A stretch of DNA of 64,000 nucleotides from Folioceros fuciformis. Taxonomy: Eukaryota. Both the position numbers and the translations under genes were made by a program. Every line of letters starts with the position of its first letter. Positions within the stretch are counted from its first letter, which is position 1. Where the stretch lies: assembly GCA_049999805.1 (NCBI GenBank), contig JBNGIO010006162.1, forward strand, positions 103,827-167,826, in the 5' to 3' direction. The notes under the pieces were generated by a model. It searched no databases and was not told the origin of the DNA. It saw nothing but the letters and a program-made list of their open reading frames with translations. Below, in pieces: positions 9,417-57,576 of the stretch.

Positions 9417-12400
9417 TCAGGACCCGTCATGGAATGCGCATCAACTGTACCCAGCTGTTCCGCACTGTCATTCACATGCCAACTACCACACACCAGTCCG
9501 GAAGCGGATACCGCAGACCTCTACGGCCCAGCTAAGTACCATACCACGACGATATCATTTGGAGGGTTGGGCGCAGATCGCTTGCAACCCATTCAACACC
9601 ATGACTGCCCTCCTATTCGGGATCTGACCCACCAGCGTCCCTCGGGACTGTGACCTCGGTCTCCAGGCCCTCTACAAGCAGCTGCTTGCGTAGCATTGTT
9701 TGGCCCATATTTGGCCACTTCTGCAACAACCCATTCTACCACGGTCTCATCATTCCGAAACTCCAGGGGAAAACTTTTTTGCCCACCAGGCTCTCAGCCT
9801 CAGCCTCACAGCCTCCGGGTGCCGTCACGCCGCAGGCCCGATTTTACACGGATATTGTGCCCTACCGGGCCGTCGCTCGGTCGGCAATACCCTTCCACGG
9901 ATCTGAAGCTGTAACGATGAGAGCCGTCAATCCCTCATTTTGGATGTCATAAGTTGAGAACCGAGTGAATGCTGTGTCTGGAAGGTATTAAAAGTCTGGA
10001 GCTCATATCGCAGTACCATGAAATGATGTGTCAAGTAAGTGGTGAGGTGGTGGGGTTGATGCCCGTCTTTTGTGGTGTCCACTGGCGAGAATGCGATGGG
10101 AGGACGTGTATCCTTGTCTGCTCTTGTGTTTGCAGCGAGTTCCAAGAGGTCTAGAAGGAGATTGCTTCCAAATCCTCCCCTCCCTAGTGTTCGCCTTCCT
10201 TACAGTTGGGGGATCTGTCATTGAGGCGGGAATTCCACCGCTCACGATACGTTCGGAGAGGTTCTGAGCTAGGGGACCGTCGGCTCAGAGCTGGCCGTGT
10301 AGATCGTTAATGTGAGACCTTATGTGCATATGATTTCCAAGTGAAGTCCTTGTCTACTGCGCAACCTTCGCATCAGCCACCAAGTGAGCCAGCAACTACA
10401 GCCCGTCAGGTACGCCTTAGCACCGAACCTGTGCACTGTAGGGGAAACTGCGAGGTGGCTATGGTTTATGGGATGCATTCCGCTTTAATGCAGTTATTCG
10501 TATCCCTTGTGCTTGAACGTACTTGTCAAGAAGGAACTAGGCTGGAAGTGGGCTGGTCATCGACTTCAGATTTGTGATCTGTGTTTTGTCTCGTGAACCG
10601 TCACAATATACTCAACCAGCATCCTTGGCCCCGGTAGACGTGCCTCTTGTAAGGTTGGTCCTGTGACAGTTGCTAGCCTACATGCAGCATATGGAAGCAT
10701 CAGGTCACCTGCCTGTAGAGGCTGTGTCCGACCCATGTGCCTGCCAACTGCTGGGAGGCGGTCTTGGGGTGTCCTCACTAGGCCTGGTGTCAATGGAACA
10801 GGCATTTCGATGCCCATGTATTAGCAGGGTTACTACAGGCCTCCTCCTAGTGGACAGACGCAGTTACTACCGAAGCCCCTACCAGTAATGCTTTGCAGGC
10901 TGCTGCACGGTTTTCCATCGTTGGCATCATTGTCTGGAGTACCAAGTGGTACAGTCTCCAGTCAGGTAAGCGTGGCCTTTGCAAATGCTCCTCCACCACC
11001 TATGGTTGCCATCCAACCTTACGTCCATGCGGCAGTCTTTTGAGTCCTTGACAGCGGCATCGTTCCCTGCCTCAAGTGCAGCTTCTACGCCGGTTGCTGC
11101 ATCATGGGACTGATACCACATTTGTCCNNNNNNNNNNNNNNNNNNNNNNNNNNNNNNNNNNNNNNNNNNNNNNNNNNNNNNNNNNNNNNNNNNNNNNNNN
11201 NNNNNNNNNNNNNNNNNNNNNNNNNNNGCAGTAGGCAAGTTTGCATATCCAGAAGGTAAAGTCAGTGCTGTGATAACCCCAGCAGCCAAGAATCCTCGGA
11301 GAAGCAATGCCCATGGTCAATCGTTTTTAGGTCCACTTCAGGGTGTAGGTGGTGGTGGTGGTGGTCCTGGATTTGCTTGTACGGTTTCGGCTGCCCCTCC
11401 ACACTCAACCCCTACAAAAGGGTTGTGGTTCCATGCCAGTGGTCGGAAAAGTGCTGGGGCCTTACAACTTTCAGTTTGTAACAGAATTGCCAGAGTCAGA
11501 ACATTAAATCGCCTCTGGAGCATTGGAGGATCTGCAGCAACCACTCACTTTGCCTCCAACAGGTGGCACTTTGGTCACATCTGGACTTTGGTCACATCTG
11601 GTGCTCATGAGTCTTTCCTGGTGGTGCAGTTGGTGTTTCTTCTCATTATGCGATACAAAATATGACCAAATTCTCTTGCAAGTTCTGTATCTATATGATG
11701 GATTTTGAATTCTAAACTTTCCTCCTAATAGAGAAAGTTTGGTATGTGATGGTAAAACTCTATCTATGGAACACTGCATGCTTAGAAATCCCTCATGAAT
11801 AAAACAAGAATAGGTACTAAGCACACTCCCTCATAGATGAAAATAAATTGATAGCAACTAAACACAAACTCACTCATAGGAACAAAACATGTGCATTTGG
11901 ACAGAAGCATATGTAGAATCCTTCCCATGGAGAAGGAGATGTCATTAACCACCAAGTTCCTCATGCACATGTAATTTTGACTATAACTTTGACTGTAACA
12001 ATGGTATATGAGAGCAGCCTCTCCCAACAAGATAAAATCCTCTTCCTTTGGTCAAATATGAACATGGTTGTACTCATGAATTGATCATGTTTTAAATAGG
12101 GTTGAATCCATGAGTTGCCTTGTTCATGTTGGAGGAATGTATTGTCCCTACAAAGTAGTAAGTAAAGTAAAGTGCATTCTTGAGTTGTTGAGAGGCCATA
12201 GAAGTGCAAATTTGGAGGGTAAGCCAAAGGCTAGACTGGGTAGAGGTATCAGTTACAGGAGATTTTGCAAGTACCATTTCAAATTAAGTTTTATAAGTTC
12301 TTGGCCAACGCATTTTCACAATTACGTGAAGTTTCAAAAGTTCCAAAATTAGTCCACCTAGCGAATTGTAATTTCCGCGTATGGTGAACTCTAGGAACTG

Positions 12401-15099: not shown

Positions 15100-15172
15100 G
15101 GGCTAAGGAAAATGTGTCCCTTAGCTGGAGGGCTAAGGAAAATGTGTCCCTTAGCTGGAGGGCTAAGGAAAA
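15100..15172. repeat. 30-bp tandem repeat, about 2.5 copies
   Basis: GGGCTAAGGAAAATGTGTCCCTTAGCTGGA repeated, between the divergent F-box and OPA3 genes. Confidence 0.8.
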
Positions 15173-15431
15173 GTTGGCTTCTATAGCTTGGAGGGAAGAT
15201 GAAGGAGGAGAAGAAGGGGAGGCAGGGAAGAACAGGGATGCAACAGCCGCAGCTGATGGCAGTGGAAGATTGGCGGCCTACATTTTGATTGGCGTGCAGT
15301 GATGAACGTATTGGTGTGGTAAAGAAGGTGAAGTTGTGAAGGCTTCAGGGATCTCTGTCTCTCCCTGCTCTTGGAGCTTTGGTTGGCCGCCCTGCTCTGT
15401 GGCAGAGAGGCTGGGCTGAGTGTGCGGGATC

Positions 15432-16314
15432 ATGATTTTGCCTGTGGCGAAGCTGGGGACGCTGCTTTTGAGAACTCTGAGCAAGCCCCTGGCAGCGCGG
15501 CTCAAAGCGCAGGCAGCAATGCATCCGAAATTTCGGGATACGATTGTGTCCATGGCGCAGGTGTGGTGGCGTGTTGACGTGCTGTGGGTTAGGCTAGACT
15601 GGTTTGCTTTAGCTTTGGCTTGGCTTGGCTGACATCTTGTGACATAGTGTGTGCTTTTTGGCAGGCGAATCATAGATTCACTGTGAATGTTCAGAGACGA
15701 ATTTATGGTCATGCGACGGATGTGGAGATCCGTCCTCTGAACGAGGAGAAGGCAATTCAAGCTGCCACGGACCTGGTTGGAGAGCTCATCGTTTTCTCGG
15801 TATGCCCTGGGAATGGCTTTGAATGGGAGTATGTGGGAATAAAACCCTAAGGTGTGTGCTTGCTTTGATTGCGGAATTGGACGGTGCCTGCGTCTCAGTT
15901 GTTCTGTTTGATGAAGACCGCAAGTCTTTCATATTCGGTTGATGGATTCCTCTTTTTAGTGACAGGTAGGAGGAGCTGTGGTTGTTTTTGAGGTATCGAG
16001 GAATGCAAGGTCCGAGGCACGGAAGGAGGAAACAAGGAAGAAAGAGCTTGAGGTATTCACATTTGATTTCAAGTGCAGAAGCGGTTGAGGAAGTGTGTGA
16101 ATGTAGGTTGATTCTCCTGCTGCCGAAGCTTCACTTGCCACATTGTGTCTGTTCTGGGCAGGATTTGAAGTCTAGAGATGAAGCTGCGATACAAGAAATT
16201 GAAGCGTTGAAGCAGAGGTTGAGTGATCTTGAACGAGCATCTCGAGGGCGTGGCATCACAAGTTGGCTACCAGGAGGCAGCGGGTCTACCGACACAGCAC
16301 CTGCAGGGGCATGA
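15432..16314 (+). CDS. OPA3: OPA3-like protein; exons about 15432-15560, 15665-15799, 15966-16052, 16162-16314
   Basis: MILPVAKLGTLLLRTLSKPLAARLKAQAAMHPKFR...EIRPLNEEKAIQAATDLVGELIVFSVGGAVVVFEVSRNARSEARKEE is the OPA3 family signature; three GT-AG introns splice in frame. Confidence 0.9.
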
Positions 16315-17207
16315 ACTCATCTTGGAGGTGTACCATTGTCAGGTGCTTGCTCCTTTTAATGCCCCCGACGAACTCACATACGCAATCCTGGCAGTCGGGG
16401 ATAGGTGACAGGAGGGTTTGTGTTGACCTCCGTGGCCGCTCATGGTCCAATTTGAGCCATCGCTCCCCGCCGATGATGTTAGCGAGTCAGGATCCTAGCT
16501 TCCTGGGGGAGAGTTTATTAGCAACAGCTGAAGCTAACTGGCGTTTAAAGAAATTGCTTATTTTTGCGGCTCCTTAACTGGCCCTTCGTATTCGTATACC
16601 ATACTAATGCTTGCGTTTCCATACTCTGATACTTGACCCCTTTGCTCTCGGACTTCGTGGCATGGAGCGTAGTTGCCTGCTCTTTTGTCGAATAGTCGTG
16701 GTACTGATCAAACCAGGTGGGTGCACTTAAGGGGTTCTGAATACGTCCTTTCTGAGGGTGTGATGCTGGATGGTAGTGGACAGGACTGAAGGCAATGCCC
16801 GAGCTGGCTTGATGGCGGAGGCCACCATTGAGGGCAAGTCTTGGCAAGGAGCTTAGTCAACATTTGAGAGGCGCCCACGGATTTGAAGAACACTGGGGTA
16901 CTACAGCACAGCGGAAAGGAGCAGGCAGCGGCCCCTCTTTCCCCTTCTGTCCGTGCTTCCCGGCCAGTGTACTCTGTCGTCGTTACCATGCTTGCGTCGT
17001 AATAAGGAGCAGTACATTGACTCTCCGTTCCTTGTCGTTGTAGGAACCAGCCTTCCGTTTAGTAGGCCACTGTGTCCCACATGCATTCGACTTGTTTTCT
17101 GAGTTATGGAGAGAGGTGGAGCCCTGTTCAGATGGATACTTAGCCATCAAGTTAAGCAAGCGCAGTCAAAGAACATGAAGTACGTTTCTGAGGAATGCAC
17201 TATCTTC

Positions 17208-19916
17208 TCACGGCCGACCCTTGCAACTGCATGACCCAGCTTCGAACCGATGCACACGGTACCCATCCCTTACAACAATGTCTCTTCGTTCAAGCCTTGA
17301 CATGATCTCCGTGGAAGTGTGGCAGTCACTGCACATGCGTAGATTCTTCGTCACCACCAGAGGTGTCCCACTCGGAGTGTTCAGGAGGCCAAACGCCAGA
17401 GCCAACTTCTCAGCATGCCCACAAAGCACATCTTCCTTTTCCTTCTCACACACTGGCTTCAGCACCAACTTTGTGTGAGGTAAGTGGCCTCCTTCTTGCT
17501 TCACACGAGCATTCATGCGCTCCACCTTCAGCGCAATATCCTCTCTTCTCTCTCCCACCAGAAATCGATGCACCTCCCTGTTCACCTCAATGGTTGCCAA
17601 CGCAGCTTTCTTGGTAGCTCCTGCTTCCCTTCTCTGTGTTTCAATCCTGTCTACATCGGTCCACCTACCTGCATCTGCGTAGGCATTGGCCATAAGCACA
17701 TATGCAGGTGCCTGCGTGGGGTCCAGCCTGACAATGCTTTCAAAACACCACTTGGCCCTCTCTATATCCCCATGACTTTTGCAGGAATTCAGCAAAGACA
17801 CCAATCCTACCACATCACTTTGGCCCTCACATGACAGAAGCTTCTCTGCCTCTTGTAAATGGCCTGCACGGCCGAGAAGATCAACCATGCAAGTGTAATG
17901 CTCAACAGTAGGTATGATGCCATGTTTTTCAGCCATGGAATAAAAGTGCTTCCGACCCTCGTGGACAAGTCCCTCGTGACTGCATGCCACTAGAAGGCAA
18001 GTAAAGGTAGCATCATCAGGCTGAATACCAGCAGCTAACATCTCCTCAAAACAAGTCAGTGCCTTGCGGCCCTCATCACAAGTACCATAGCCAGACATGA
18101 GGGCATTCCATGTCACTACATCCTTTGTGGCCATCCTGTCAAATACCTGACGCGCATCTCCCAATTCCCCACACTTGGCATACATGTCCACCAGGCAGGT
18201 GCCCAGCAGTAGGTCATCTAGCAGCCCTCTTTCCACGATCTGCGAGTGCAGCTGCCTGCCCTTCTGTAAGGCACCAGTGCCTCCACAGGCCTTCAGAAGG
18301 CAAGCCAGAGCGACATGGTCAGCCAAAATGAGGCCTCCCTCCTCCATCTGTCCATAGAGAACAAGAGCCTCTTGCCCGAGCCCATGCTGTGCATAGGCAG
18401 CGATCAGCGTCGTCCATGTCACCACATCCCGTGTCTCCATACTGTCAAGAACCTGGCGTGCTTCTTCCAGTTCACCACATTTTGCATACCCAGCGAGCAA
18501 GGCATTCCAAGTCACCAAGTCTTTTGTGTTCAGGCTGTCGAAAACTTTGCGTGCATCTTTCAGGTTGCCACATTTCGCGTACATGTCCACCAGGCAGTTG
18601 CCAACAAACAGGTTAGTAGGGATGCCACTGTCCAAAACATCAGAGTGCACTTTCCTCCCAGACTCCAAGTCGGAGGCCAATGCACAAGCTTGGAGAGCAG
18701 CTACAAAGACGTGAGCATCTGCCTTCACTCCTGCCCTACACATCTCATGGTACAGTTGTATGGCCTCCTTAGGTCGCCCATGCTTAGCATATGCAGAGAT
18801 GATGGAAACCCAAATGAAGGCATTTGGTTTGCGCACCCTGGTGAACACATCCATGGCCTCTTGCAGACTACCTCCAGATGCATACATGCGCAAGACATGG
18901 TTCCCCAGGTATGCATCCGACTCGAACCCGAGTTTCACTACCAGCTCATGAACTCGCCGCCCCACTGCCAGATCCTTCTTTTTCGTACACAGTTTCAGCA
19001 CAGTGTAGAACAGATACTGGGGAATAGCAGAGTCTGCCAGCGCCAGAGATTCGAGGACTCCAACAGCCTCACCAAGCTTCCCCTGCTGACATAACGCGCT
19101 CACGATTTCCAATTGAGGCTTACCCACAGAGCTGGACTGGGACGAAGAGGCGCCACGACCCATCTGCGCATCCAGGGAAACGAGCTGCTCATCAACCCAA
19201 GCTGGCTTGAACGAATTGTTTAACCACAGCACCTCCCCGGACCCCTTACGCCGGAAGTCAGGCCTGCCGGAGCTCTTCTTATCCCGTCTGTTGTCCCACC
19301 ACATGGCAGGATCCAGAAAGAACTGCTGCCACAAGTGCTCCTGCTCCTGCTCCTGCTCCTTGCGACGACCATGGTTGTACAACCCGTCCCCATCTACCCA
19401 ACTCCCACCTTCTGGGCTCCTCTCACTGCTGCACCTGAAACCCATTTCCAACTCTGCACTCCTCCCAGACTCAGAACCACCCCGAGAGCTCGATTCCGAA
19501 GGAGAGGAGCCATGGCCCATCCGCATGTCCCAGGAACCCAGCTGCTCATCAACCCAGGCTGGCTTGAACATATTGTTCAACCACAACACCTCCCCGGAGC
19601 CCTTACGTCGAAAGTCAGGCGAACGAGAGCTCTTCTTATCGAGCCTGTTGTCCCACCACATGGTAGGGTCCAGAAAAAATTGTTGCCACAAGTGCTCCTC
19701 CTCCTGGCGACGAACATCGACGGAACCCCCTCCTCCACCCACACATTTTCTCGGCCAAGGAAGTGCTGGGTTTCTCACACTGCTGCACCTGGCGGCCTTG
19801 GTTTGCAGGTGTTGACATCCTGAACCCTCATGGACTGCAGCAGACCCCACAACAATCCCTCTACACACACCAACCTGTTGGGTCCACAACAGATCCGGTT
19901 GCCAGACCACGGACAT
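17208..19916 (-). CDS. PLS-class PPR protein with E1/E2 and DYW:KP (GRP-type) domain, plus two N-terminal OSB-type PDF motifs
   Basis: 902-aa intronless ORF with about 12 P/L/S/SS motifs. Deaminase region KKAALATIEV...LCGHAEKLA...RMCSDCH...HRFEAGSCSCKGRP. N-terminus has two copies of HLWQQFFLDPxMWWDNRxDKKSSxxPDFRRKGSGEVLWLNNxFKPAWVDEQL. Confidence 0.92.
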   Translation of the reverse strand: MSVVWQPDLLWTQQVGVCRGIVVGSAAVHEGSGCQHLQTKAARCSSVRNPALPWPRKCVGGGGGSVDVRRQEEEHLWQQFFLDPTMWWDNRLDKKSSRSPDFRRKGSGEVLWLNNMFKPAWVDEQLGSWDMRMGHGSSPSESSSRGGSESGRSAELEMGFRCSSERSPEGGSWVDGDGLYNHGRRKEQEQEQEHLWQQFFLDPAMWWDNRRDKKSSGRPDFRRKGSGEVLWLNNSFKPAWVDEQLVSLDAQMGRGASSSQSSSVGKPQLEIVSALCQQGKLGEAVGVLESLALADSAIPQYLFYTVLKLCTKKKDLAVGRRVHELVVKLGFESDAYLGNHVLRMYASGGSLQEAMDVFTRVRKPNAFIWVSIISAYAKHGRPKEAIQLYHEMCRAGVKADAHVFVAALQACALASDLESGRKVHSDVLDSGIPTNLFVGNCLVDMYAKCGNLKDARKVFDSLNTKDLVTWNALLAGYAKCGELEEARQVLDSMETRDVVTWTTLIAAYAQHGLGQEALVLYGQMEEGGLILADHVALACLLKACGGTGALQKGRQLHSQIVERGLLDDLLLGTCLVDMYAKCGELGDARQVFDRMATKDVVTWNALMSGYGTCDEGRKALTCFEEMLAAGIQPDDATFTCLLVACSHEGLVHEGRKHFYSMAEKHGIIPTVEHYTCMVDLLGRAGHLQEAEKLLSCEGQSDVVGLVSLLNSCKSHGDIERAKWCFESIVRLDPTQAPAYVLMANAYADAGRWTDVDRIETQRREAGATKKAALATIEVNREVHRFLVGERREDIALKVERMNARVKQEGGHLPHTKLVLKPVCEKEKEDVLCGHAEKLALAFGLLNTPSGTPLVVTKNLRMCSDCHTSTEIMSRLERRDIVVRDGYRVHRFEAGSCSCKGRP

Positions 19917-20377
19917 GGTTCAGCAACCGCTCCTAAGACATGCGAGTCTAACGAAAAAGACCATGGCAGGTCGCTGCACAGGCACATCCCATGTCCATGT
20001 CACCCTGCAGGATACGAAGACTATTTTCTCCAAGGATGCGCAGGAATGACAGACCCTGATCGATTCCAGGTTTCGGGGATGGATGTTTTTCCAGCTCGTT
20101 TTCGAGCAAGGGGGAGGAGGAGTATGGAGTACCAATCGGACCAGTTGCGATAGCGCGACCTCTGCTACTTCCTATGGGAATACGTCGTTGCATTTCTCCT
20201 CGTATTCTACGTACATATCACCGTACATATATACCATTTTCTTATACTTTCGACCGACCGGTACTGCACAAATCTTGTTTCTTGTCGCAACATCCTATCG
20301 CATCACACAAGGCTGTTGTTTAAGGTTTATGGGTGACGTAGTCATATCTTATCCCCATAGAACACACTTACTTATTG

Positions 20378-20652
20378 GAGGGATTCCTTGCTCTAAGCTT
20401 CAGCCTCACACAAAGGAGGGATTCAGGATTCCTTGCTCTAAGTTTCGGCCTCGAACAAAGGGAGGGATTCAGGATTCCTTGCTCTAAGCTTCGGCCTCGA
20501 ACAAAGGGAGGGATTCAGGAATCCTTGCTCTAAGCTTCGTCCTCACACTAAAGGAGGGATTCAGGATTCCTTCTCCTAAGCTTTCGCCTCACACAAACGG
20601 AGGGATTCAAGATTTCTTGCTCTAAGCTTCAACCTCACACAAAGGATTCAGC
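20378..20652. repeat. 46-bp minisatellite, about 6 copies
   Basis: GGAGGGATTCAGGATTCCTTGCTCTAAG(C/T)TTCGGCCTC(G/A)(A/C)ACAAAG at 20415, 20461, 20507, 20553, 20599, plus flanking partial copies. Confidence 0.9.
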
Positions 20653-21620
20653 CCCTAGGCATAACATCATTGTTTGTACCTCACAGCTACAAATATGGAG
20701 AAGGCATGGTTCAACATCAATCCTTGCAATGCCATTTAACAATGTGCTTGTAGCAAAGCCCTTTGATGTGTCATTCAACATGGTGCTTGCAACAAAACTT
20801 GTGTGCAAAATACCTAACATGCTTTCCAGATCTTCAAACCATAACAACAATGAACTACAAAGAAGTGATCTTCAAGCCACAGCAACAATAAACTACCAAG
20901 AAGATGCAGTAGGTTTTCTAAATCCCCAAACTGTAGCAACAATAATCTAAAGAAACAGAACCACTTTTGCAAATAGCAAAGTAATAGAACCATACTCCAT
21001 ATCATAATTATGCCTGCAAGTACAATTGAAGATTTGAGGTGCTACTACGTCTCTATGCTTGAGGCATCACTCTTGCTCTACATTTCTACCTCCAATGCTT
21101 TCCTAGGCCTAAGCAAAGCTAAAGCAAATGATCAATGGTTGCTCATGGTACGTCCTTTAGATATACAAGGAAGCGAAAAAAAGGCTCGTTACAAATTCGG
21201 CACTAATCGATGCAAGTTGTCCAGTAAGGGACTCTAATCGGGGAGGAAGGACATGCAGATTCCACTTTCTTCCGAAGCCCTAAACCAACGCGTTTCGGAC
21301 ACGGTTGGTGAACGGCAGAGGGTCGACTGGCTGGGAAACGACACTGAATTTGATTTAGATTCGTCTGTCTGGTTCCTGGACTCTTCGCTGTGCACAGACT
21401 GTCGCTGCGCCTCCAGAGTCTTGTTGCTAGAATCGCCCCATGGCACGTTGTGAATTGCTGCGGCAGAGGAGGATGCTGGAAGAGCGTGTGAAGCTGGTGC
21501 TGCGCAGAGATGAGAGTGTGGTTTGAGTGGCAGTGTGTTTTCTCTGGTGTCCATGTGTAAAGGTGAGGTTGAAGTTGTGTGAGGGTGAGCGGAGGCAACG
21601 TCTGGCTGGAAGGAAGCGTG

Positions 21621-23225: not shown

Positions 23226-23573
23226 TTGTTAGGAAGATCATGTTACCTTCGGCATAGTGTTGAGGCAAAACCCCGGGCACTGATTGNNNNNNNNNNATGT
23301 TACCTTCGGCATAGTGTTGAGGCAAAACCCCGGGCACTGATTGTTAGGAAGATATGTTACCTTCGGCATAGTGTTGAGGAAAAACCCCGGGCAGTGATTG
23401 TTAGGAAGATCATGTTACCTTCGGCATAGTGTTGAGGCAAAACCCCGGGCACTAATTGTGAGGAAGATCATGTTACCTTCGGCATAGTGTTGAGGCAAAA
23501 CCCCGGGTACTGATTGTTAGGAAGATCATGTTACCTTCGGCATAGTGTTGAGGCAAAACCTCGGGCACTGATT
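23226..23573. repeat. 58-bp minisatellite, at least 6 copies, with internal N gap
   Basis: Unit TTGTTAGGAAGATCATGTTACCTTCGGCATAGTGTTGAGGCAAAACCCCGGGCACTGA. Confidence 0.9.
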
Positions 23574-45920: not shown

Positions 45921-48389
45921 CTACCAGTAGTCTCCGCAAGAGCACTTCCCGTCCTTGAAGTGGTGGAAACGGTTTGCGTCTCGTGCAATGATTTGCCGTT
46001 TGACAGCCTTTGAGATGAACTTGGTGGCAGTATGGCAGTCCTCACACACACGTAAGTTCTTCATGATGCGGAGTGTTGTTCCTGGAGGGGTGTTGATGAG
46101 CCCGAAAGCAATGGCCAGCTTCTCGCTGTGATGAAAGATGGACTGCTGCTTTTGCTCTTCTTCTATGTCATGCAGCACTAGGCTTGTGTTAGGAACATAT
46201 CCTGCTGACTTGATGTCTGTAATGAGGCTGTCCAGTCTCGCATATATTTGATTGGTTTGCGGGTGTCGTTTATCCTCTGCAATGAACACGTGCACCTGGC
46301 CTTTGAGTTCAATAGAGCTTTGTCCAATTTCCTTCTTCACACCCCGCTCCTTCATCAAGCTCCTGACTCGTGCTTCGTCCTCCCGTCTGCCAGCTGCAGC
46401 GTATACGCTCGCAAGCAGCACAAAAGCTGCACTGTCACCCGGCTCCAGCTCCAGGATGCGCTCGGCTGCATGCGTTGCCAGTTCGACATTTCCATGGATT
46501 CTGCAGGCCCCGAGCAATGCTTTGAACACTACAGCATTGGGTTCACACTGCATCTTAGCTACCAGTTCTTCACTTTCATCCAAACGCCCAGCACGGCCAA
46601 GAACATCCACCAGACAAGCATAGTGCTTTGCTGTTGGGCTGATGTTATGTATCCTCTTCATGTAGTCGAAATAATAGCGAGCTTCATTCACCAAACCCAC
46701 ATGGCTGCAGGCCGTCAGTATGCTCACAAAGGTAACATGATTGATCTCCGCGCCTTTGCGCTGCATCTTTTCGAAGAGCTGGAGAGCATCCCAGCCCAAT
46801 CCATGCTTGGCATATCCGGTGATCATGCTGGTCCAGGAGATCACATTGGGTTTCCTCATACCTTCGAACACTGTTCTGGCATCCTCTATGCTGCCGCTTT
46901 TGGCATACATGTCGATCAGAGAATTAGCAACGAAGACGTCCGATTGAAACCCGAGCTCGATGATGAGCTGGTGAACCTGCTTACCATGCGTCAAGGCAGC
47001 AAGGCTGGCACAGGCATTCAAGACGGATGTAAGAGTATGCTTTCCGGGCTTCACCCCTTCCTGCAGCATTCGCTTGTACAGCATCAGCGCTTCCTGAGGT
47101 TGGTCTTGCTGATTGTATCCAGTTATGATGGAAGTCCAGGCAACCATATCCCGTCGTTGAAGCTCGTTGAACAACCCCCGAGCCTCTTCCATGCTGCCGC
47201 ATTTGGCATACATATGAATCAGTGAGCTGTTGACAAAAGCATCTGCCCCAAAGCCACGCTTGACGAGATCCGCATGGACTTGTCTGCCCTTATCCAGTGC
47301 CTCAAGGCTGGCGCACACACTGATGATACTGGCAAAGGTGACCTCATTCGGCTCCACACCTACCTCTTGCATTTTACGGAACAGCCTAAAAGCCTCCTCT
47401 CCAGGTCCATTTTGTGCATAGCCGGCAATCAGGGCAGACCATGCCACCACATTACGCTCTGACATGTGTGCAAAAACCTGTCGTGCCTCTTCCATCCTCT
47501 TGCACTTGGCATACATCGAGACGAGTGCAGTGCCGACAAACAGGTCAGAGTTGTAACCAGCCCGAACAGCAAGTTCATGCACCCGCTTGCCCCCATCCAG
47601 GTCTGCTAAGCTCCCGTACACGTTCAGAACGGTGACAAGAGTAACCTTGTTCGTCTGCACATTTTCCCTCTCCATCCTACTGAATAGCTTCAGAGCTTCA
47701 ATGTTGTGCCCATGTTGAGCATAGCCGGCAATCATAACTGTCCACGAAACCACATTCCGCATAGCCATCTGGTCAAAAACCTGGCGCGCATCCACCATGC
47801 TCCCACACTTGGCGTACATATGCACAAGAGTATTTGACAAGAACATATCAGGCTTAAACCCGATTTTCGTCATGTGTGCATGAACACGTCTTCCCTCCGC
47901 CAGTGCTTTCCTCTTGATGCAACAATTCAACAGAGAAGCATAGACTGCAGTGTACCGCCTGGCCCCAGTCTCCTTCAAGGTCAGGAGGACGACCATGGCC
48001 TCTTTCAACCGCCCTTCATTGCACAGTCTTGCAACATCCACAGGGAGACGACCAGCTTGCCTAAGTCCCTCCGTGACTTCCCCTTCCTCCTCTTTTGTCC
48101 TCACCACCCTCCTCCTTGGCTTGCCCCGTTGGACACTTCTCCTACCATCTTCCAAGCCACTCCGCCTCGACTCCAGGTCATCCCAAGGCATAGGCATCAT
48201 CACCCCCCTGTAAGACCAAGCATGCTCATCTGTAAGCTTCGGCAGAAATGTCAACATCCCTGCACATCCCCTGGCTGCCAAAGTCACACACCTCTGGGCA
48301 CTACCTCTTTTCCTCCTTCCCCGAACTCCCAGCATCCATATCACCAGGCATAGGAGGTAGCCAGGGCCTCCATCGACCACGTGCTTCAT
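45921..48389 (-). CDS. PLS-class PPR-E-DYW protein, canonical C-to-U RNA editing factor type
   Basis: Regular P-L-S triplets, E1/E2, KKEIGQSSIE (PG-box position), HHSEKLA, RVCEDCH, HHFKDGKCSCGDYW. First ATG of the long ORF is at 48389. Confidence 0.93.
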   Translation of the reverse strand: MKHVVDGGPGYLLCLVIWMLGVRGRRKRGSAQRCVTLAARGCAGMLTFLPKLTDEHAWSYRGVMMPMPWDDLESRRSGLEDGRRSVQRGKPRRRVVRTKEEEGEVTEGLRQAGRLPVDVARLCNEGRLKEAMVVLLTLKETGARRYTAVYASLLNCCIKRKALAEGRRVHAHMTKIGFKPDMFLSNTLVHMYAKCGSMVDARQVFDQMAMRNVVSWTVMIAGYAQHGHNIEALKLFSRMERENVQTNKVTLVTVLNVYGSLADLDGGKRVHELAVRAGYNSDLFVGTALVSMYAKCKRMEEARQVFAHMSERNVVAWSALIAGYAQNGPGEEAFRLFRKMQEVGVEPNEVTFASIISVCASLEALDKGRQVHADLVKRGFGADAFVNSSLIHMYAKCGSMEEARGLFNELQRRDMVAWTSIITGYNQQDQPQEALMLYKRMLQEGVKPGKHTLTSVLNACASLAALTHGKQVHQLIIELGFQSDVFVANSLIDMYAKSGSIEDARTVFEGMRKPNVISWTSMITGYAKHGLGWDALQLFEKMQRKGAEINHVTFVSILTACSHVGLVNEARYYFDYMKRIHNISPTAKHYACLVDVLGRAGRLDESEELVAKMQCEPNAVVFKALLGACRIHGNVELATHAAERILELEPGDSAAFVLLASVYAAAGRREDEARVRSLMKERGVKKEIGQSSIELKGQVHVFIAEDKRHPQTNQIYARLDSLITDIKSAGYVPNTSLVLHDIEEEQKQQSIFHHSEKLAIAFGLINTPPGTTLRIMKNLRVCEDCHTATKFISKAVKRQIIARDANRFHHFKDGKCSCGDYW

Positions 48390-56251: not shown

Positions 56252-57576
56252 CTACGCTTGCAAAACTTGGCAGTGCACAATGTGGCTCTTCAACCGGTTT
56301 CTTCCAGCAATGTTGGACCACAAGTTGGTAACAAACGTCTTGAAATGTCCCTTCCCCGCAATGGTCTCCCACAAGTGAGCCTTTTTGTTGGGATCCCCGG
56401 CGTTGGCCACGTCCACCAAAGTAATGCTCATGTTGTTGCGAATCACGCACAACTTTCCCCCAAGCGGCAACAATGCAGCAGCCTCCAATGCCCTAGAATT
56501 CCCCAAATGGATCTTACTGTCCACCGACTTGCTCCACGAGTCGCTCAGCCTGTCGTAAACCCTAAGCTTGCACCCGTCCCGGCAGTCCAGCGCATACAGC
56601 TGTCCGTTGAGTGACGCGCTCGGATTCCTCCACCCCGACACCATCCCGTCGATAATAGGCGACCAGTGGTTAGTGGCCGGCACATAAACCTCGCTCATCA
56701 CCTGCCGCTGCGACCCCAAACCCTTGAGAAACCATCTTCCACCATACACCACTCCAATAAACGGCACCATCGCCGTGCTCATGTCCGAGATAAAGCTCCA
56801 CTTGTACTTGTTCGGATCATACATCTCAGCCGAGCGGAGCGAGCGCTGGATCCCCTCGCACTCCCCGCCCGCCACATACAAGCAGTTGTTAATCACACAG
56901 CAGCCGAAGAAATGCCGCCGCCGCAACATGTCCGGAGCCCGATGCCATTTGTTCGTCGTAGCGCTGTAGTACACCACCTTCTTCATCGAGCCCTTAGACG
57001 GATCCTTCCCTCCAAAGAGATACAAATGGCACCCGCTCAGCACAGCGCACCCGAATCCCAGCGCCTCCTTGAAATCTTCCGGCACCTGCGGCAGCGGCTG
57101 CCACTGCTTGAAGATCGGGTCGTACGCATGCCACGAGATGCGGTTGTCTCGGTCCCGCTTGATAACATACACCCACTCCTCCGCCATCCCCAGGCTCCTC
57201 CGCAGCGCGAAGAAGAAATGCCCCGCAAGCAGCCGCTTCCATCGCTTGCACACCACCCGGAGCTTATTGTGGTAAACCCGGGGCACCCGGATGAGGCAGG
57301 CGATGGCNNNNNNNNNNNNNNNNNNNNNNNNNNNNNNNNNNNNNNNNNNNNNNNNNNNNNNNNNNNNNNNNNNNNNNNNNNNNNNNNNNNNNNNNNNNNN
57401 NNNNNNNTCCTTGGCTTGATCTCCGGCCTCACGCATCGGTTCCCTCCCGGCACGAACTTCCTCGCTCCCGCCACCGACAACCCCGCATCCACTCCCCCGC
57501 AGTAGCACGCTGCCGTCTCGACCTGCAGAGAGGACATGCACGCCATGCGGGTGGGGGATCTGGAAGCCGCGCGCAT
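56252..57576 (-). CDS. SAGL1: F-box/kelch-repeat protein (At1g55270/SAGL1-like), interrupted by a 100-N gap
   Basis: CYCGGVDAGLSVAGARKFVPGG before the gap; AIACLIRVPR...GCHLYLFGGKDP...NRLKSHIVHCQVLQA after it. The apparent frame change falls in the gap. Confidence 0.85.

Follow-up and report, generated by a model that had tools for sequence, protein, structure and literature searches.

Tandem OSB-type PDF domains at the N-terminus of a PPR-DYW protein of Folioceros fuciformis and the recurrence of the PDF-PPR architecture in seedless land plants

The gene, its parts and its transcript

The gene described here lies in a window of 64,000 nucleotides (the whole stretch of Folioceros fuciformis DNA that was analysed) and consists of one uninterrupted open reading frame (ORF) on the reverse strand, 17208-19916(-), that encodes 902 amino acids (aa). 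It starts with an ATG at 19916, with an in-frame stop two codons upstream, and ends with the stop codon at 17208-17210; the gene is free of N runs, as all four N runs of the window are located elsewhere. The encoded protein is composed, from the N-terminus, of a disordered leader, a PDF domain, a disordered linker, a second PDF domain, a PLS-type PPR array, the E motifs and a DYW domain:

17208..19916, reverse strand: whole coding sequence, 902 aa and stop (single ORF)
19917..20121, reverse strand: likely 5′ untranslated region (452-nt contig of RNA run X1)
19722..19916, reverse strand: N-terminal leader, aa 1-65, predicted to be disordered (pLDDT about 40 over aa 1-61)
19527..19706, reverse strand: PDF domain copy 1, aa 71-130 (PDF profile match, library search, structural model)
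19350..19526, reverse strand: S/G/E-rich linker, aa 131-189 (sequence; pLDDT below 50 for aa 136-173)
19173..19349, reverse strand: PDF domain copy 2, aa 190-248 (PDF profile match; 86.7% identity to copy 1)
17775..19112, reverse strand: PLS-type PPR array, aa 269-714 (Pfam PPR, PPR_1, PPR_2 and PPR_3 matches)
17586..17774, reverse strand: E1/E2 motifs, aa 715-777 (PF20431 E_motif, E 1.1e-12)
17211..17609, reverse strand: DYW deaminase-like domain, aa 770-902, 133 aa (PF14432, E 6.2e-33; alignment)

The first-pass annotation had placed W-rich repeats and a complete PPR-E-DYW protein in one ORF, which the reading of the frame and the Pfam matches bear out, and its S/G/E-rich linker between the repeats was found again at aa 131-189, where disorder is also predicted. 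The leader is presumed, from its position and composition, to be an organelle-targeting peptide.

As for transcription of the gene, a hint is given by a 452-nt contig of RNA run X1, which covers 19670-20121, is identical to the window and spans the ATG into the first PDF domain; the same run also includes a spliced contig of a neighbouring gene. No contig bridging the PDF domains to the PPR array was present among the contigs listed for the four RNA runs of this species. These runs were compared at 85% likeness, which is too loose, so that thousands of paralogous PPR contigs matched and swamped the tables, and depth is therefore unusable. At the same likeness the interval 20321-21200 was uncovered in all four runs, and nothing was read from this gap. 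In one contig of run X3 a joint from 19304 to 19663 omits one repeat unit, but because its shorter side has only 28 letters the joint is too weak to argue for a one-PDF allele or orthologue.

The PDF domains: homology, selection and predicted fold

At the DNA level the repeat extends over 228 nt (19122-19349 against 19479-19706, 82% identity) with a spacing of 357 nt, that is 119 codons. The two protein copies share 86.7% identity over 60 aa (window search with copy 1, E 2e-33), and in the 56-aa cores, aa 71-126 and 190-245, 50 of the 56 positions are identical. The PDF profile puts the domains at aa 71-130 and 190-248, thus at nt 19527-19706 and 19173-19349, in agreement with the two repeat copies first noticed at 19540-19700 and 19183-19345. 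The PDF motif was reported to be responsible for ssDNA binding in OSB proteins and to be sufficient for it in OSB1 (PMC6963530, PMC6451138, PMC4166229), and OSB1 and OSB2 are described as preferring ssDNA over dsDNA or RNA (PMC4166229).

A search with copy 1 of a library of 1.84 billion representatives returned 619 proteins at E≤1e-3 (150 of which make up the matches listed) and 145 at E≤1e-10, the best of them at E 2.6e-65. 'Protein OSB3' of Cajanus was matched by the N-terminal region at E 3.9e-25 and by copy 1 at E 6.2e-27, and proteins combining an OB/SSB domain with PDF domains were matched by the N-terminal fragment at E 4e-12 to 7e-7. The residues W, P, WWDNR, K, PDF, K, LW and PxW are kept in both copies; each of these positions is invariant, or conserved to at least 90%, both in alignment A1 (42 sequences) and in the 60-column profile. 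The suggestion that the W-rich repeats are genuine OSB-kind PDF motifs is thus upheld by the profile, the OSB3 match and the 619 library matches, and sequence comparison confirms both copies as true homologues of the OSB motifs. In the trees the two copies of the window are sisters (support 95-99); in the preferred reading the domain was duplicated inside the gene in this lineage.

Selection on the PDF part, which the first-pass annotation had asked about, can be judged from the differences between the copies. Over the 56-codon core dS is 0.76, dN 0.061 and omega 0.08, values drawn from a comparison within one gene (15 synonymous and 8 non-synonymous differences) that gene conversion could distort; in the repeated tail omega is 0.54. 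Judged by this estimate, the PDF cores are under strong purifying selection.

Each PDF domain is predicted to be an independently folding compact unit. A model of a single domain (pLDDT 93, pTM 0.78) consists of a helix, three short strands and a second helix, and in a model of aa 1-330 both domains reach pLDDT 90-98 (copy 2, 93-98) whereas leader and linker stay below 50; the PPR helices begin at aa 266. Searches for relatives of this fold gave little: aa 66-265, searched by sequence against solved structures, yielded only chance-level matches (E≥0.18), Foldseek with the PDF model against the PDB returned nothing at E≤0.001, a usable match to the PDF was not found in the ESM Atlas, and VIA-align over 48,161 chains reached a best Z of 4.3, with none at or above 5, a result that shows neither a new fold nor unrelatedness to known folds.

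The editing module and the recurrence of PDF-PPR proteins

PPR-DYW proteins serve as specificity and catalytic factors in plant organelle RNA editing, and U-to-C editing can, to our knowledge, be programmed only by way of DYW:KP domains. The protein of the window has the tandem PPR array (PF01535, 3e-63; PF13041, 4e-57; PF12854, 4e-44), the E motifs (PF20431, 1.1e-12, aa 715-777) and the HxE...CxxC zinc signature (HAE, CSDCH) of a PLS-class PPR-DYW protein, with PF14432 DYW_deaminase matched at aa 810-900 (E 6.2e-33). A parse by hand, which is not a tool result, counts about 13 repeats in the array, including an SS-like repeat and a P2-L2-S2 set.

To place the DYW domain, it was aligned with GRP, DRH and PG domains. 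It reads HAEKLALAFG, with Ala for Ser in HxE, and lacks the xHP triplet, a 4-residue gap standing opposite HPQT, HPQS or HPHI of the PG domains. The stretch VVTKNLRMC provides K88 and M92, counted from the C-terminus of the 133-aa domain; STEIM stands where PG domains have ATKFI or ATKII, so that Glu occupies the equivalent of K103, and the protein ends in SCSCKGRP. HAE, the absence of xHP, K88, M92 and the GRP end are features given in PMC9478123 and PMC11845758, and the GRP end together with Glu at the PG-type K103 position is described in PMC9478123. The box that gives the clade its name reads KKAALA, while KKPAxA or RKPAxA is found in the relatives P0015, P0179 and P0185: K is kept, P is replaced by A, and PG is also absent. 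The box of P0186 is likewise devoid of P (KKAAKA). Because of HAE, the missing xHP, K88, M92, the Glu and the GRP end, together with 64-71% identity to GRP-ending, KP-bearing relatives (71% to P0015), the domain is assigned by alignment to the GRP subgroup of the DYW:KP clade, with a variant KA box. The earlier proposal of a U-to-C-type deaminase thus stands as regards HAE, the lack of xHP, the length of 133 aa, K88, M92 and GRP, but not as regards the KP dipeptide, which reads KA. A U-to-C direction of editing would follow from this placement. U-to-C editing of RNA was obtained with designer GRP-based proteins, in which editing hits the base 4 nt 3′ of the last PLS triplet; such editors are inefficient, at 22-50% in E. 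coli (PMC9478123). According to PMC11845758, U-to-C catalysis was demonstrated only with designer consensus proteins, natural KP proteins being uncharacterised.

Is the protein of the window a single curiosity? The first-pass annotation had proposed a chimeric editor and allowed for a single-copy accident; a unique chimera is ruled out, since the same order, PDF and then PPR, occurs in at least 23 other proteins of seedless land plants. With the window's own protein the combination is thus found in at least 24 non-redundant proteins, and in all 24 the PPR span is preceded by one to three PDF domains; the PDF has a median relative position of 0.11 in these proteins vs 0.66 in PDF proteins without PPRs. 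The named sources are Sphagnum, Selaginella, Diphasiastrum, Adiantum, Ceratopteris and Pteridium, and P0133, named as a Pteridium transcript ORF, holds PDF and PPR within one frame.

The PPR-linked PDF domains have the common sequence LWQxFFSDPSQWWDNR and a signature in the 60-column profile (F11, 72% vs 14%; D14, 69% vs 13%) that is weighted by Diphasiastrum paralogues, which contribute more than half of the 39 domains. On the PDF tree the PPR label requires 3 changes vs 31 when shuffled, and a forced single clade of PPR-linked PDFs is not rejected (p-AU 0.88). The best explanation of these data would include a distinct subfamily of PPR-linked PDF domains that arose early in land plants.

The expectation that the PDF might be enriched in DYW:KP proteins failed: it was present in 2 of 27 HAE-type relatives, or in 2 of 12 when only those with a sufficiently long N-terminus are counted, as 15 of the 27 have at most 48 aa before the first PPR match, many beginning inside the array and looking N-terminally truncated. 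Among the three GRP-ending relatives one PDF is found in P0015 and none in P0179 and P0185, and P0184 keeps only a degenerate remnant, DPSQWWYNR. The low share among the judgeable relatives suggests that the PDF is dispensable for the U-to-C reaction itself. None of 88 HSE/HGE-type matches of the DYW-domain search had a PDF; canonical DYW:PG proteins with a PDF are Diphasiastrum P0014 and Sphagnum P0146, and PDF-bearing PPRs that lack a deaminase are P0157, P0104, P0150, P0155 and P0019. A fusion specific to U-to-C editors was accordingly rejected, since canonical DYW and deaminase-less PPR proteins also carry PDFs.

Possible roles of the PDF domains and comparison with known systems

PPR tracts lie parallel on RNA, with the N-terminus towards the 5′ end, and the PDF domains, ahead of the tract, would thus be oriented towards the 5′ side of the target. 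The reading that we prefer, tentatively and with a probability of about 0.45, is that of an intact nuclear gene for an organelle-targeted PLS PPR protein with a DYW:KP-clade domain, whose two PDFs would be single-strand nucleic-acid clamps. Set on flexible linkers, they would grip single-stranded nucleic acid irrespective of its sequence, raise the affinity or the on-rate and hold the target strand unfolded, while specificity would come from the PPR array and the DYW:KP domain would act on a nucleotide 3′ of the footprint. More generally, we favour an auxiliary role for the PDF, as a clamp or tether for single-stranded nucleic acid, and RNA may be its ligand. Against this reading stand the fold searches, which found no relative among solved nucleic-acid-binding domains, the KA in place of KP and the low share of PDF carriers among the judgeable DYW:KP relatives.

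A possible, though on the whole unlikely, alternative is that the PDF domains bind ssDNA, such as the non-template strand, R-loops or replication intermediates, and hold the PPR protein at the nucleoid for co-transcriptional editing or processing. The PDF is the ssDNA-binding element of the OSB proteins, and the reported preference of OSB1 and OSB2 for ssDNA (PMC6963530, PMC6451138, PMC4166229) favours such a tether over RNA binding; all invariant residues of the motif are kept and the flexible linkers of the model suit tethering. However, the PDFs of PPR proteins have diverged into a subfamily with its own signature, so that their ligand preference may have changed, and PPR proteins act on RNA; the PDFs are joined directly to the RNA-binding tract, some 20 aa ahead of its first helix. 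The ssDNA affinity of OSB PDFs, known from the same literature (PMC6963530, PMC6451138, PMC4166229), could be carried further to an enzyme whose DYW:KP domain is brought to single-stranded organellar DNA and modifies it. This is very improbable, as PDFs are also borne by the five deaminase-less PPRs named above, specificity is supplied by a PPR tract, which reads RNA, and the substrate of designer DYW:KP proteins is RNA (PMC9478123).

The PDF might instead be a protein-interaction module that oligomerises or recruits a partner, e.g., OSB or PDF proteins, loosely like the helper factors of editing complexes. AtOSB2 was reported as a tetramer (PMC6963530) and the domain is small, aromatic-rich and without a match to a nucleic-acid-binding fold, but the oligomerisation of OSB2 was not ascribed to the PDF in that source, and reviews ascribe DNA binding to it; such a role seems quite improbable. 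That the PDF part is mis-assembled, belongs to a mis-joined gene model or is a non-functional remnant can hardly be believed: the missing bridging contig among those listed for this species and the degenerate motif of P0184 would fit it, but the ORF is continuous and without N runs, the copies have diverged by 18% in DNA and yet show an omega of 0.08, both domains are confidently predicted to fold, and the same order recurs in at least 23 proteins of independent genomes and a transcript ORF.

The clamp or tether may also be seen in a wider frame. A single fusion before the split of bryophytes and vascular plants could have coupled PPR factors through the PDF to organellar ssDNA or nascent RNA, to be kept in seedless lineages and missing from seed plants; we regard this history as doubtful. 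If it were true, editing or processing would proceed co-transcriptionally through PDF-PPR coupling, its retention would cover seedless lineages with hyper-editing and U-to-C-editing plants among them, and the PDF would have to be seen as a module for single-stranded nucleic acid in general, not as a mark of OSB proteins, and as a natural add-on that could improve the weak designer U-to-C editors.

Irrespective of its role, the PDF module recurs on PPR proteins from moss to ferns and thus exists outside the OSB proteins as well. In Selaginella, for which a 2014 review records no detected OSB (PMC4166229), the PPR protein P0157 nevertheless has a PDF. This conserved N-terminal module, predicted to be folded, is not known to figure in any model for the way in which PPR proteins find or hold their targets. 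The first-pass annotation knew of no description of a PDF-PPR-DYW architecture, and none was found in a full-text literature search that included 2026 surveys; in the available text of the PPR survey PMC13386178 the terms OSB, PDF and ssDNA have 0 occurrences, and the supplements of the OSB survey PMC13393729 and of PMC13386178 may list such proteins. Without a Pfam model of the PDF, domain-based surveys are blind to PDF-PPR proteins, which probably explains the oversight, and a PDF profile would permit a full census.

With the OSB proteins the protein of the window shares the PDF of about 55 aa, in which the conserved W, P, D, R, K, PDF and LW positions are all present, the tandem arrangement with linkers and, presumably, the organellar location. 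It differs in that the central domain of OSBs is OB/SSB-like and their PDFs lie on its C-terminal side (median relative position 0.66), whereas here the PDFs are N-terminal and PPR, E and DYW follow, and in that PPR-linked PDFs are marked by an FF and a D of their own (profile columns 11, 12 and 14). With Pfam, neither the full 902 aa nor the first 265 aa gave an SSB/OB match. Membership in the OSB family was rejected for these reasons, no SSB/OB domain and N-terminal PDFs that precede the PPRs, and only the PDF domain is common to both. The DYW:KP proteins of the GRP subgroup from hornworts, on which the designer KP2 and KP3 are based (PMC9478123), have the same PLS array, E motifs, 133-aa DYW domain and hallmarks, but the window protein has two N-terminal PDFs in addition and KA in place of KP.

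The closest counterparts are the other PDF-PPR proteins, e.g., Diphasiastrum complanatum O6H91_16G069500, Selaginella XP_024517303, Ceratopteris KAH7429238, Adiantum KAI5076972 and Sphagnum CAM6033764, annotated at source as hypothetical or generic PPR proteins. They have a short leader, one to three PDFs with the same sub-signature, a spacer of 20-50 aa and a PPR array, and are 31-59% identical to the window's N-terminal region; unlike the window protein, those of Selaginella and the ferns have C-termini without an E or DYW match, and many Diphasiastrum models have the E motif alone. PPR proteins with other accessory domains are PPR-SMR and PRORP. RRM-PPR, MORF-PPR and Znf-PPR fusions are surveyed in PMC13386178. 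In all of these types a helical-repeat RNA reader is joined to an extra functional module, as in the protein described here, where that module is the PDF.

PDF domains in the window ORF

The minus-strand ORF in which the first-pass annotation had reported two repeats is indeed uninterrupted, encodes 902 aa and is preceded by an in-frame stop two codons 5′ of its ATG. The features considered here are as follows.

17208-19916, minus strand: PDF-PPR ORF (leader, PDF 1, linker, PDF 2, PPR array, E, DYW)
19527-19706, minus strand: PDF copy 1 (aa 71-130)
19173-19349, minus strand: PDF copy 2 (aa 190-248)
aa 715-777 of the ORF: E motif (Pfam, 1.1e-12)
aa 810-900 of the ORF: DYW deaminase domain (Pfam, 6.2e-33)
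15143-17274, plus strand: OPA3-like gene (PF07047, 1e-13 on two exons)
45921-48389, minus strand: second PPR gene, intronless, 822 aa, canonical DYW:PG type (HSE...CSCGDYW)
945-954, 11128-11227, 23287-23296 and 57308-57407: the four N runs of the window (assembly gaps or masked stretches), none in or adjoining the PDF-PPR gene

The N-terminal part of the gene contains a 228-nt direct repeat (19122-19349 and 19479-19706) with a DNA identity of 82% and a spacing of 357 nt, i.e., exactly 119 codons; the PDF cores, 56 aa each, are identical at 50 positions. Pfam gave no match within the first 265 aa and many PPR matches after them. A (GAG/CAG)n stretch at 19329-19366 encodes EQEQEQE just before PDF copy 2, and contigs assembled from the sequencing run X1 tend to end there.

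The PDF motif is a 50-aa element that occurs in one to several copies per OSB, as stated in reviews (PMC6963530, PMC6451138, PMC4166229). The claim that the W-rich repeats are of this OSB type was confirmed by library matches. Among 815 candidate proteins of similar length, aa 66-265 matched four (E 3.8e-12 to 7e-7), all of which have an OB/SSB-like N-terminal half (with a Pfam SSB match in one of them) followed by one or two motifs of the same W-rich pattern. A full HMMER search of 1.84 billion representatives with a single copy (aa 70-130) returned 619 proteins at E<=1e-3, of which 145 reach E<=1e-10 and 15 reach E<=1e-30; the top match lies at 2.6e-65, and one annotated as 'Protein OSB3' at 6.2e-27.

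Comparison of the two cores gave dS 0.76, dN 0.061 and omega 0.08, although the underlying differences are few (15 synonymous, 8 non-synonymous) and gene conversion may have affected them; for the repeated linker tail omega was 0.54. The low core omega therefore indicates purifying selection on both PDF copies since the internal duplication. In AlphaFold2 one PDF, modeled with a 42-sequence alignment, reached pLDDT 93 and pTM 0.78 and was predicted to consist of three short strands between two helices, so that each PDF is predicted to fold independently. Modeling of aa 1-330 gave 90-98 for both PDFs and less than 50 for the leader (aa 1-61) and for the linker (aa 136-173), with the first PPR helices starting from aa 266; the N-terminus would therefore resemble two beads on a string joined to the PPR solenoid. 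Among solved structures no relative of the PDF domain was found by sequence search, nor by Foldseek at E<=0.001, and the top Z in VIA-align was 4.3.

Among the recorded runs that were checked, none recorded as RNA contains the PDF-PPR gene, and X1 contains 71% of the sampled words. Contigs of X1 identical to the window splice out three GT..AG introns of the OPA3-like gene (15556/15661, 15798/15965 and 16050/16160), thus at least part of this run is cDNA-derived. The 3′ end of the OPA3-like contig, at 17274, reaches 67 nt into the end of the convergent PDF-PPR ORF. A 452-nt X1 contig, identical to the window at 19670-20121, extends from the 5′ flank across the ATG into the first codons of PDF 1; this hints weakly at transcription of the PDF-coding end and is no proof of a single mRNA.

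Recurrence of the PDF-PPR architecture

The suspicion that the fusion might be a single-copy accident did not hold, as at least 23 other PDF+PPR proteins are present among the matches listed. Ten longer proteins matched the PDF region. Eight are PPR proteins of Diphasiastrum complanatum (E 2.5e-39 to 3.1e-19), each carrying two or three PDFs at its N-terminus; the others are the OSB3 protein and P0015, a 950-aa database protein that combines a single PDF with a PPR array and a GGRP-ending DYW domain. The PPR part of the window protein was also matched by 13 of the best 150 of the 619 PDF representatives; for ten of these the source is named (Adiantum, Ceratopteris and Diphasiastrum, two each; Selaginella and Sphagnum, one each; two Pteridium transcript ORFs). 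With a PDF profile built from the matches, at least 24 non-redundant PDF+PPR proteins were counted, the window's own included (at least 32 with isoforms). In every one among the matches listed the PDFs come before the PPR span, on its N-terminal side, the median relative PDF position being 0.11 versus 0.66 in 141 PDF proteins without PPR.

The PPR repeats were verified by Pfam in the eight PDF+PPR proteins checked, and the C-termini vary. The Sphagnum protein P0146 has a canonical DYW domain, and P0186 has an E motif and a DYW domain with a DRH end; outside these eight, Diphasiastrum P0014 ends in the canonical ...CSCGDYW. No E or DYW match was obtained by Pfam at 1e-5 in Selaginella P0157, the fern proteins P0104, P0150 and P0155, P0019, or P0133, the ORF of which is incomplete and ends within the repeat array. 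In Pteridium P0133, the record of which is named like a transcript ORF, a single ORF encodes a PDF (aa 22-81) as well as PPRs (aa 110-405), which places both parts on one transcript in a fern. P0157 (Selaginella moellendorffii XP_024517303) has a clear PDF at aa 4-62; in the table of a 2014 review, OSB is listed as not detected in Selaginella (PMC4166229). On these sequence comparisons, the PDF-PPR fusion is a recurrent and old architecture. Other unusual PDF contexts were seen in P0051 (Coptis chinensis KAF9616283), P0016 (Kingdonia uniflora KAF6142360) and P0025: in one, a 1526-aa model that is possibly the product of merged genes, PDFs are combined with the motor domain of a kinesin, and the remaining two have 13 and 11 PDF stretches.

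The PPR-linked PDFs have the consensus LWQxFFSDPSQWWDNR, versus LWxxLxxxPxxWxDxR in OSB-like PDFs. Phe at profile column 11 (72% versus 14%), Phe at column 12 (92% versus 44%) and Asp at column 14 (69% versus 13%) are all present in the window PDFs, the percentages being weighted by Diphasiastrum paralogues, which supply over half of the 39 domains linked to PPRs. On a FastTree phylogeny of 421 domains the PPR label required 11 changes versus 37.7 after shuffling, and none of 500 shuffles came down to 11; with IQ-TREE (37 PPR-linked and 70 randomly drawn OSB-like domains, two rows, P0156_d1 and P0014_d1, being excluded as long or gapped) it required 3 versus 31. The tree uniting all PPR-linked PDFs had a likelihood above that of the free search and was not rejected (p-AU 0.88). 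A single origin is plausible on this alignment, which with 57 columns is too short to prove a clade. The two window copies are mutual closest relatives (support 95-99), hence their duplication is lineage-specific.

No description of the PDF/OSB and PPR/DYW combination was found by full-text search, although supplements or the two 2020 papers presumed to define DYW:KP may mention it. PPR or pentatricopeptide occurs 0 times in a 2026 paper on OSB evolution (PMC13393729), as do OSB, PDF and ssDNA in a 2026 survey of domain fusions in editing factors across the kingdom (PMC13386178). PDF-PPR proteins are already in public databases, annotated as hypothetical or generic PPR.

The DYW domain and editing type

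The window DYW domain was aligned with GRP-, DRH- and DYW-ending domains. It has HAE, not HSE, a gap opposite the xHP triplet of PG domains, a length of exactly 133 residues, Lys 88 and Met 92 (VVTKNLRMC), Glu at the conserved Lys of PG domains (STEIM versus ATKFI) and a C-terminal GRP. These are features of DYW:KP and of the hornwort GRP subgroup, as described in two papers, according to which the designer proteins KP2 and KP3, both GRP-based, perform U-to-C editing in human cells as well as in E. coli, Lys88 is essential and natural KP proteins are uncharacterised (PMC9478123, PMC11845758). The proposed U-to-C-associated domain type is supported by HAE, K88, M92, the lack of xHP and the GRP end, but not by the name-giving Lys-Pro, which reads Lys-Ala (KKAALA). 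The nearest relatives by this domain (58-71% identity, ends mostly DRH or GRP) have KKPAxA in the closest cases, and KA is also found in P0186. Relatives of this kind make a hornwort source of the window probable.

An enrichment of PDFs in DYW:KP proteins was not observed. The DYW-domain search gave 115 matches, 27 HAE-type and 88 HSE/HGE-type; a PDF was found in none of the 88 and in two of the 27 (P0015 and P0186). In 15 of these 27 the first PPR match is preceded by at most 48 aa, and many of the 15 start inside the array and look N-terminally truncated. Where at least 57 aa precede the first PPR, the count is 2 of 12. Another of them, P0184, a 791-aa protein with a DAH end, carries an N-terminal ...LVDPSQWWYNR... 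below the profile threshold, which resembles the degenerate remains of a PDF and points to loss of the domain inside the DYW:KP clade. The PDF is not tied to U-to-C chemistry as such. As a within-window contrast, no PDF motif was found in the second PPR gene, which shares 35.6% identity with the PPR-DYW portion of the PDF-PPR protein.

Possible role of the PDF domains

Beyond architecture, homology, selection, predicted independent folding and recurrence, the mechanism is what we infer from the layout. On RNA, PPR tracts run parallel to the strand, and their N-terminal repeats face its 5′ side. Since the PDFs lie about 20 aa before the first PPR helix, they would contact nucleic acid just 5′ of the PPR footprint; the edited base is reported to follow the last PLS triplet at a distance of 4 nt on the 3′ side (PMC9478123). 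We favor, at a probability of about 0.45, that the PDFs would serve as a sequence-unspecific single-strand clamp, which may add affinity or keep the target unfolded.

That the PDF part is an artefact or relic is very improbable, and equally so is DNA editing by the PDF-PPR-DYW protein; a protein-interaction role of the PDFs is unlikely, if less so. A stronger competitor of the clamp, still doubtful, is a tether to nucleoid ssDNA that would enable co-transcriptional action. It draws on what reviews report for OSBs, where ssDNA binding is ascribed to the PDF motif, which is sufficient in OSB1, and where OSB1 and OSB2 bind ssDNA in preference to dsDNA or RNA (PMC6963530, PMC6451138, PMC4166229). 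Compared with those proteins, the PDFs described here have a diverged sub-signature and are attached directly to an RNA reader, and both differences argue for RNA.
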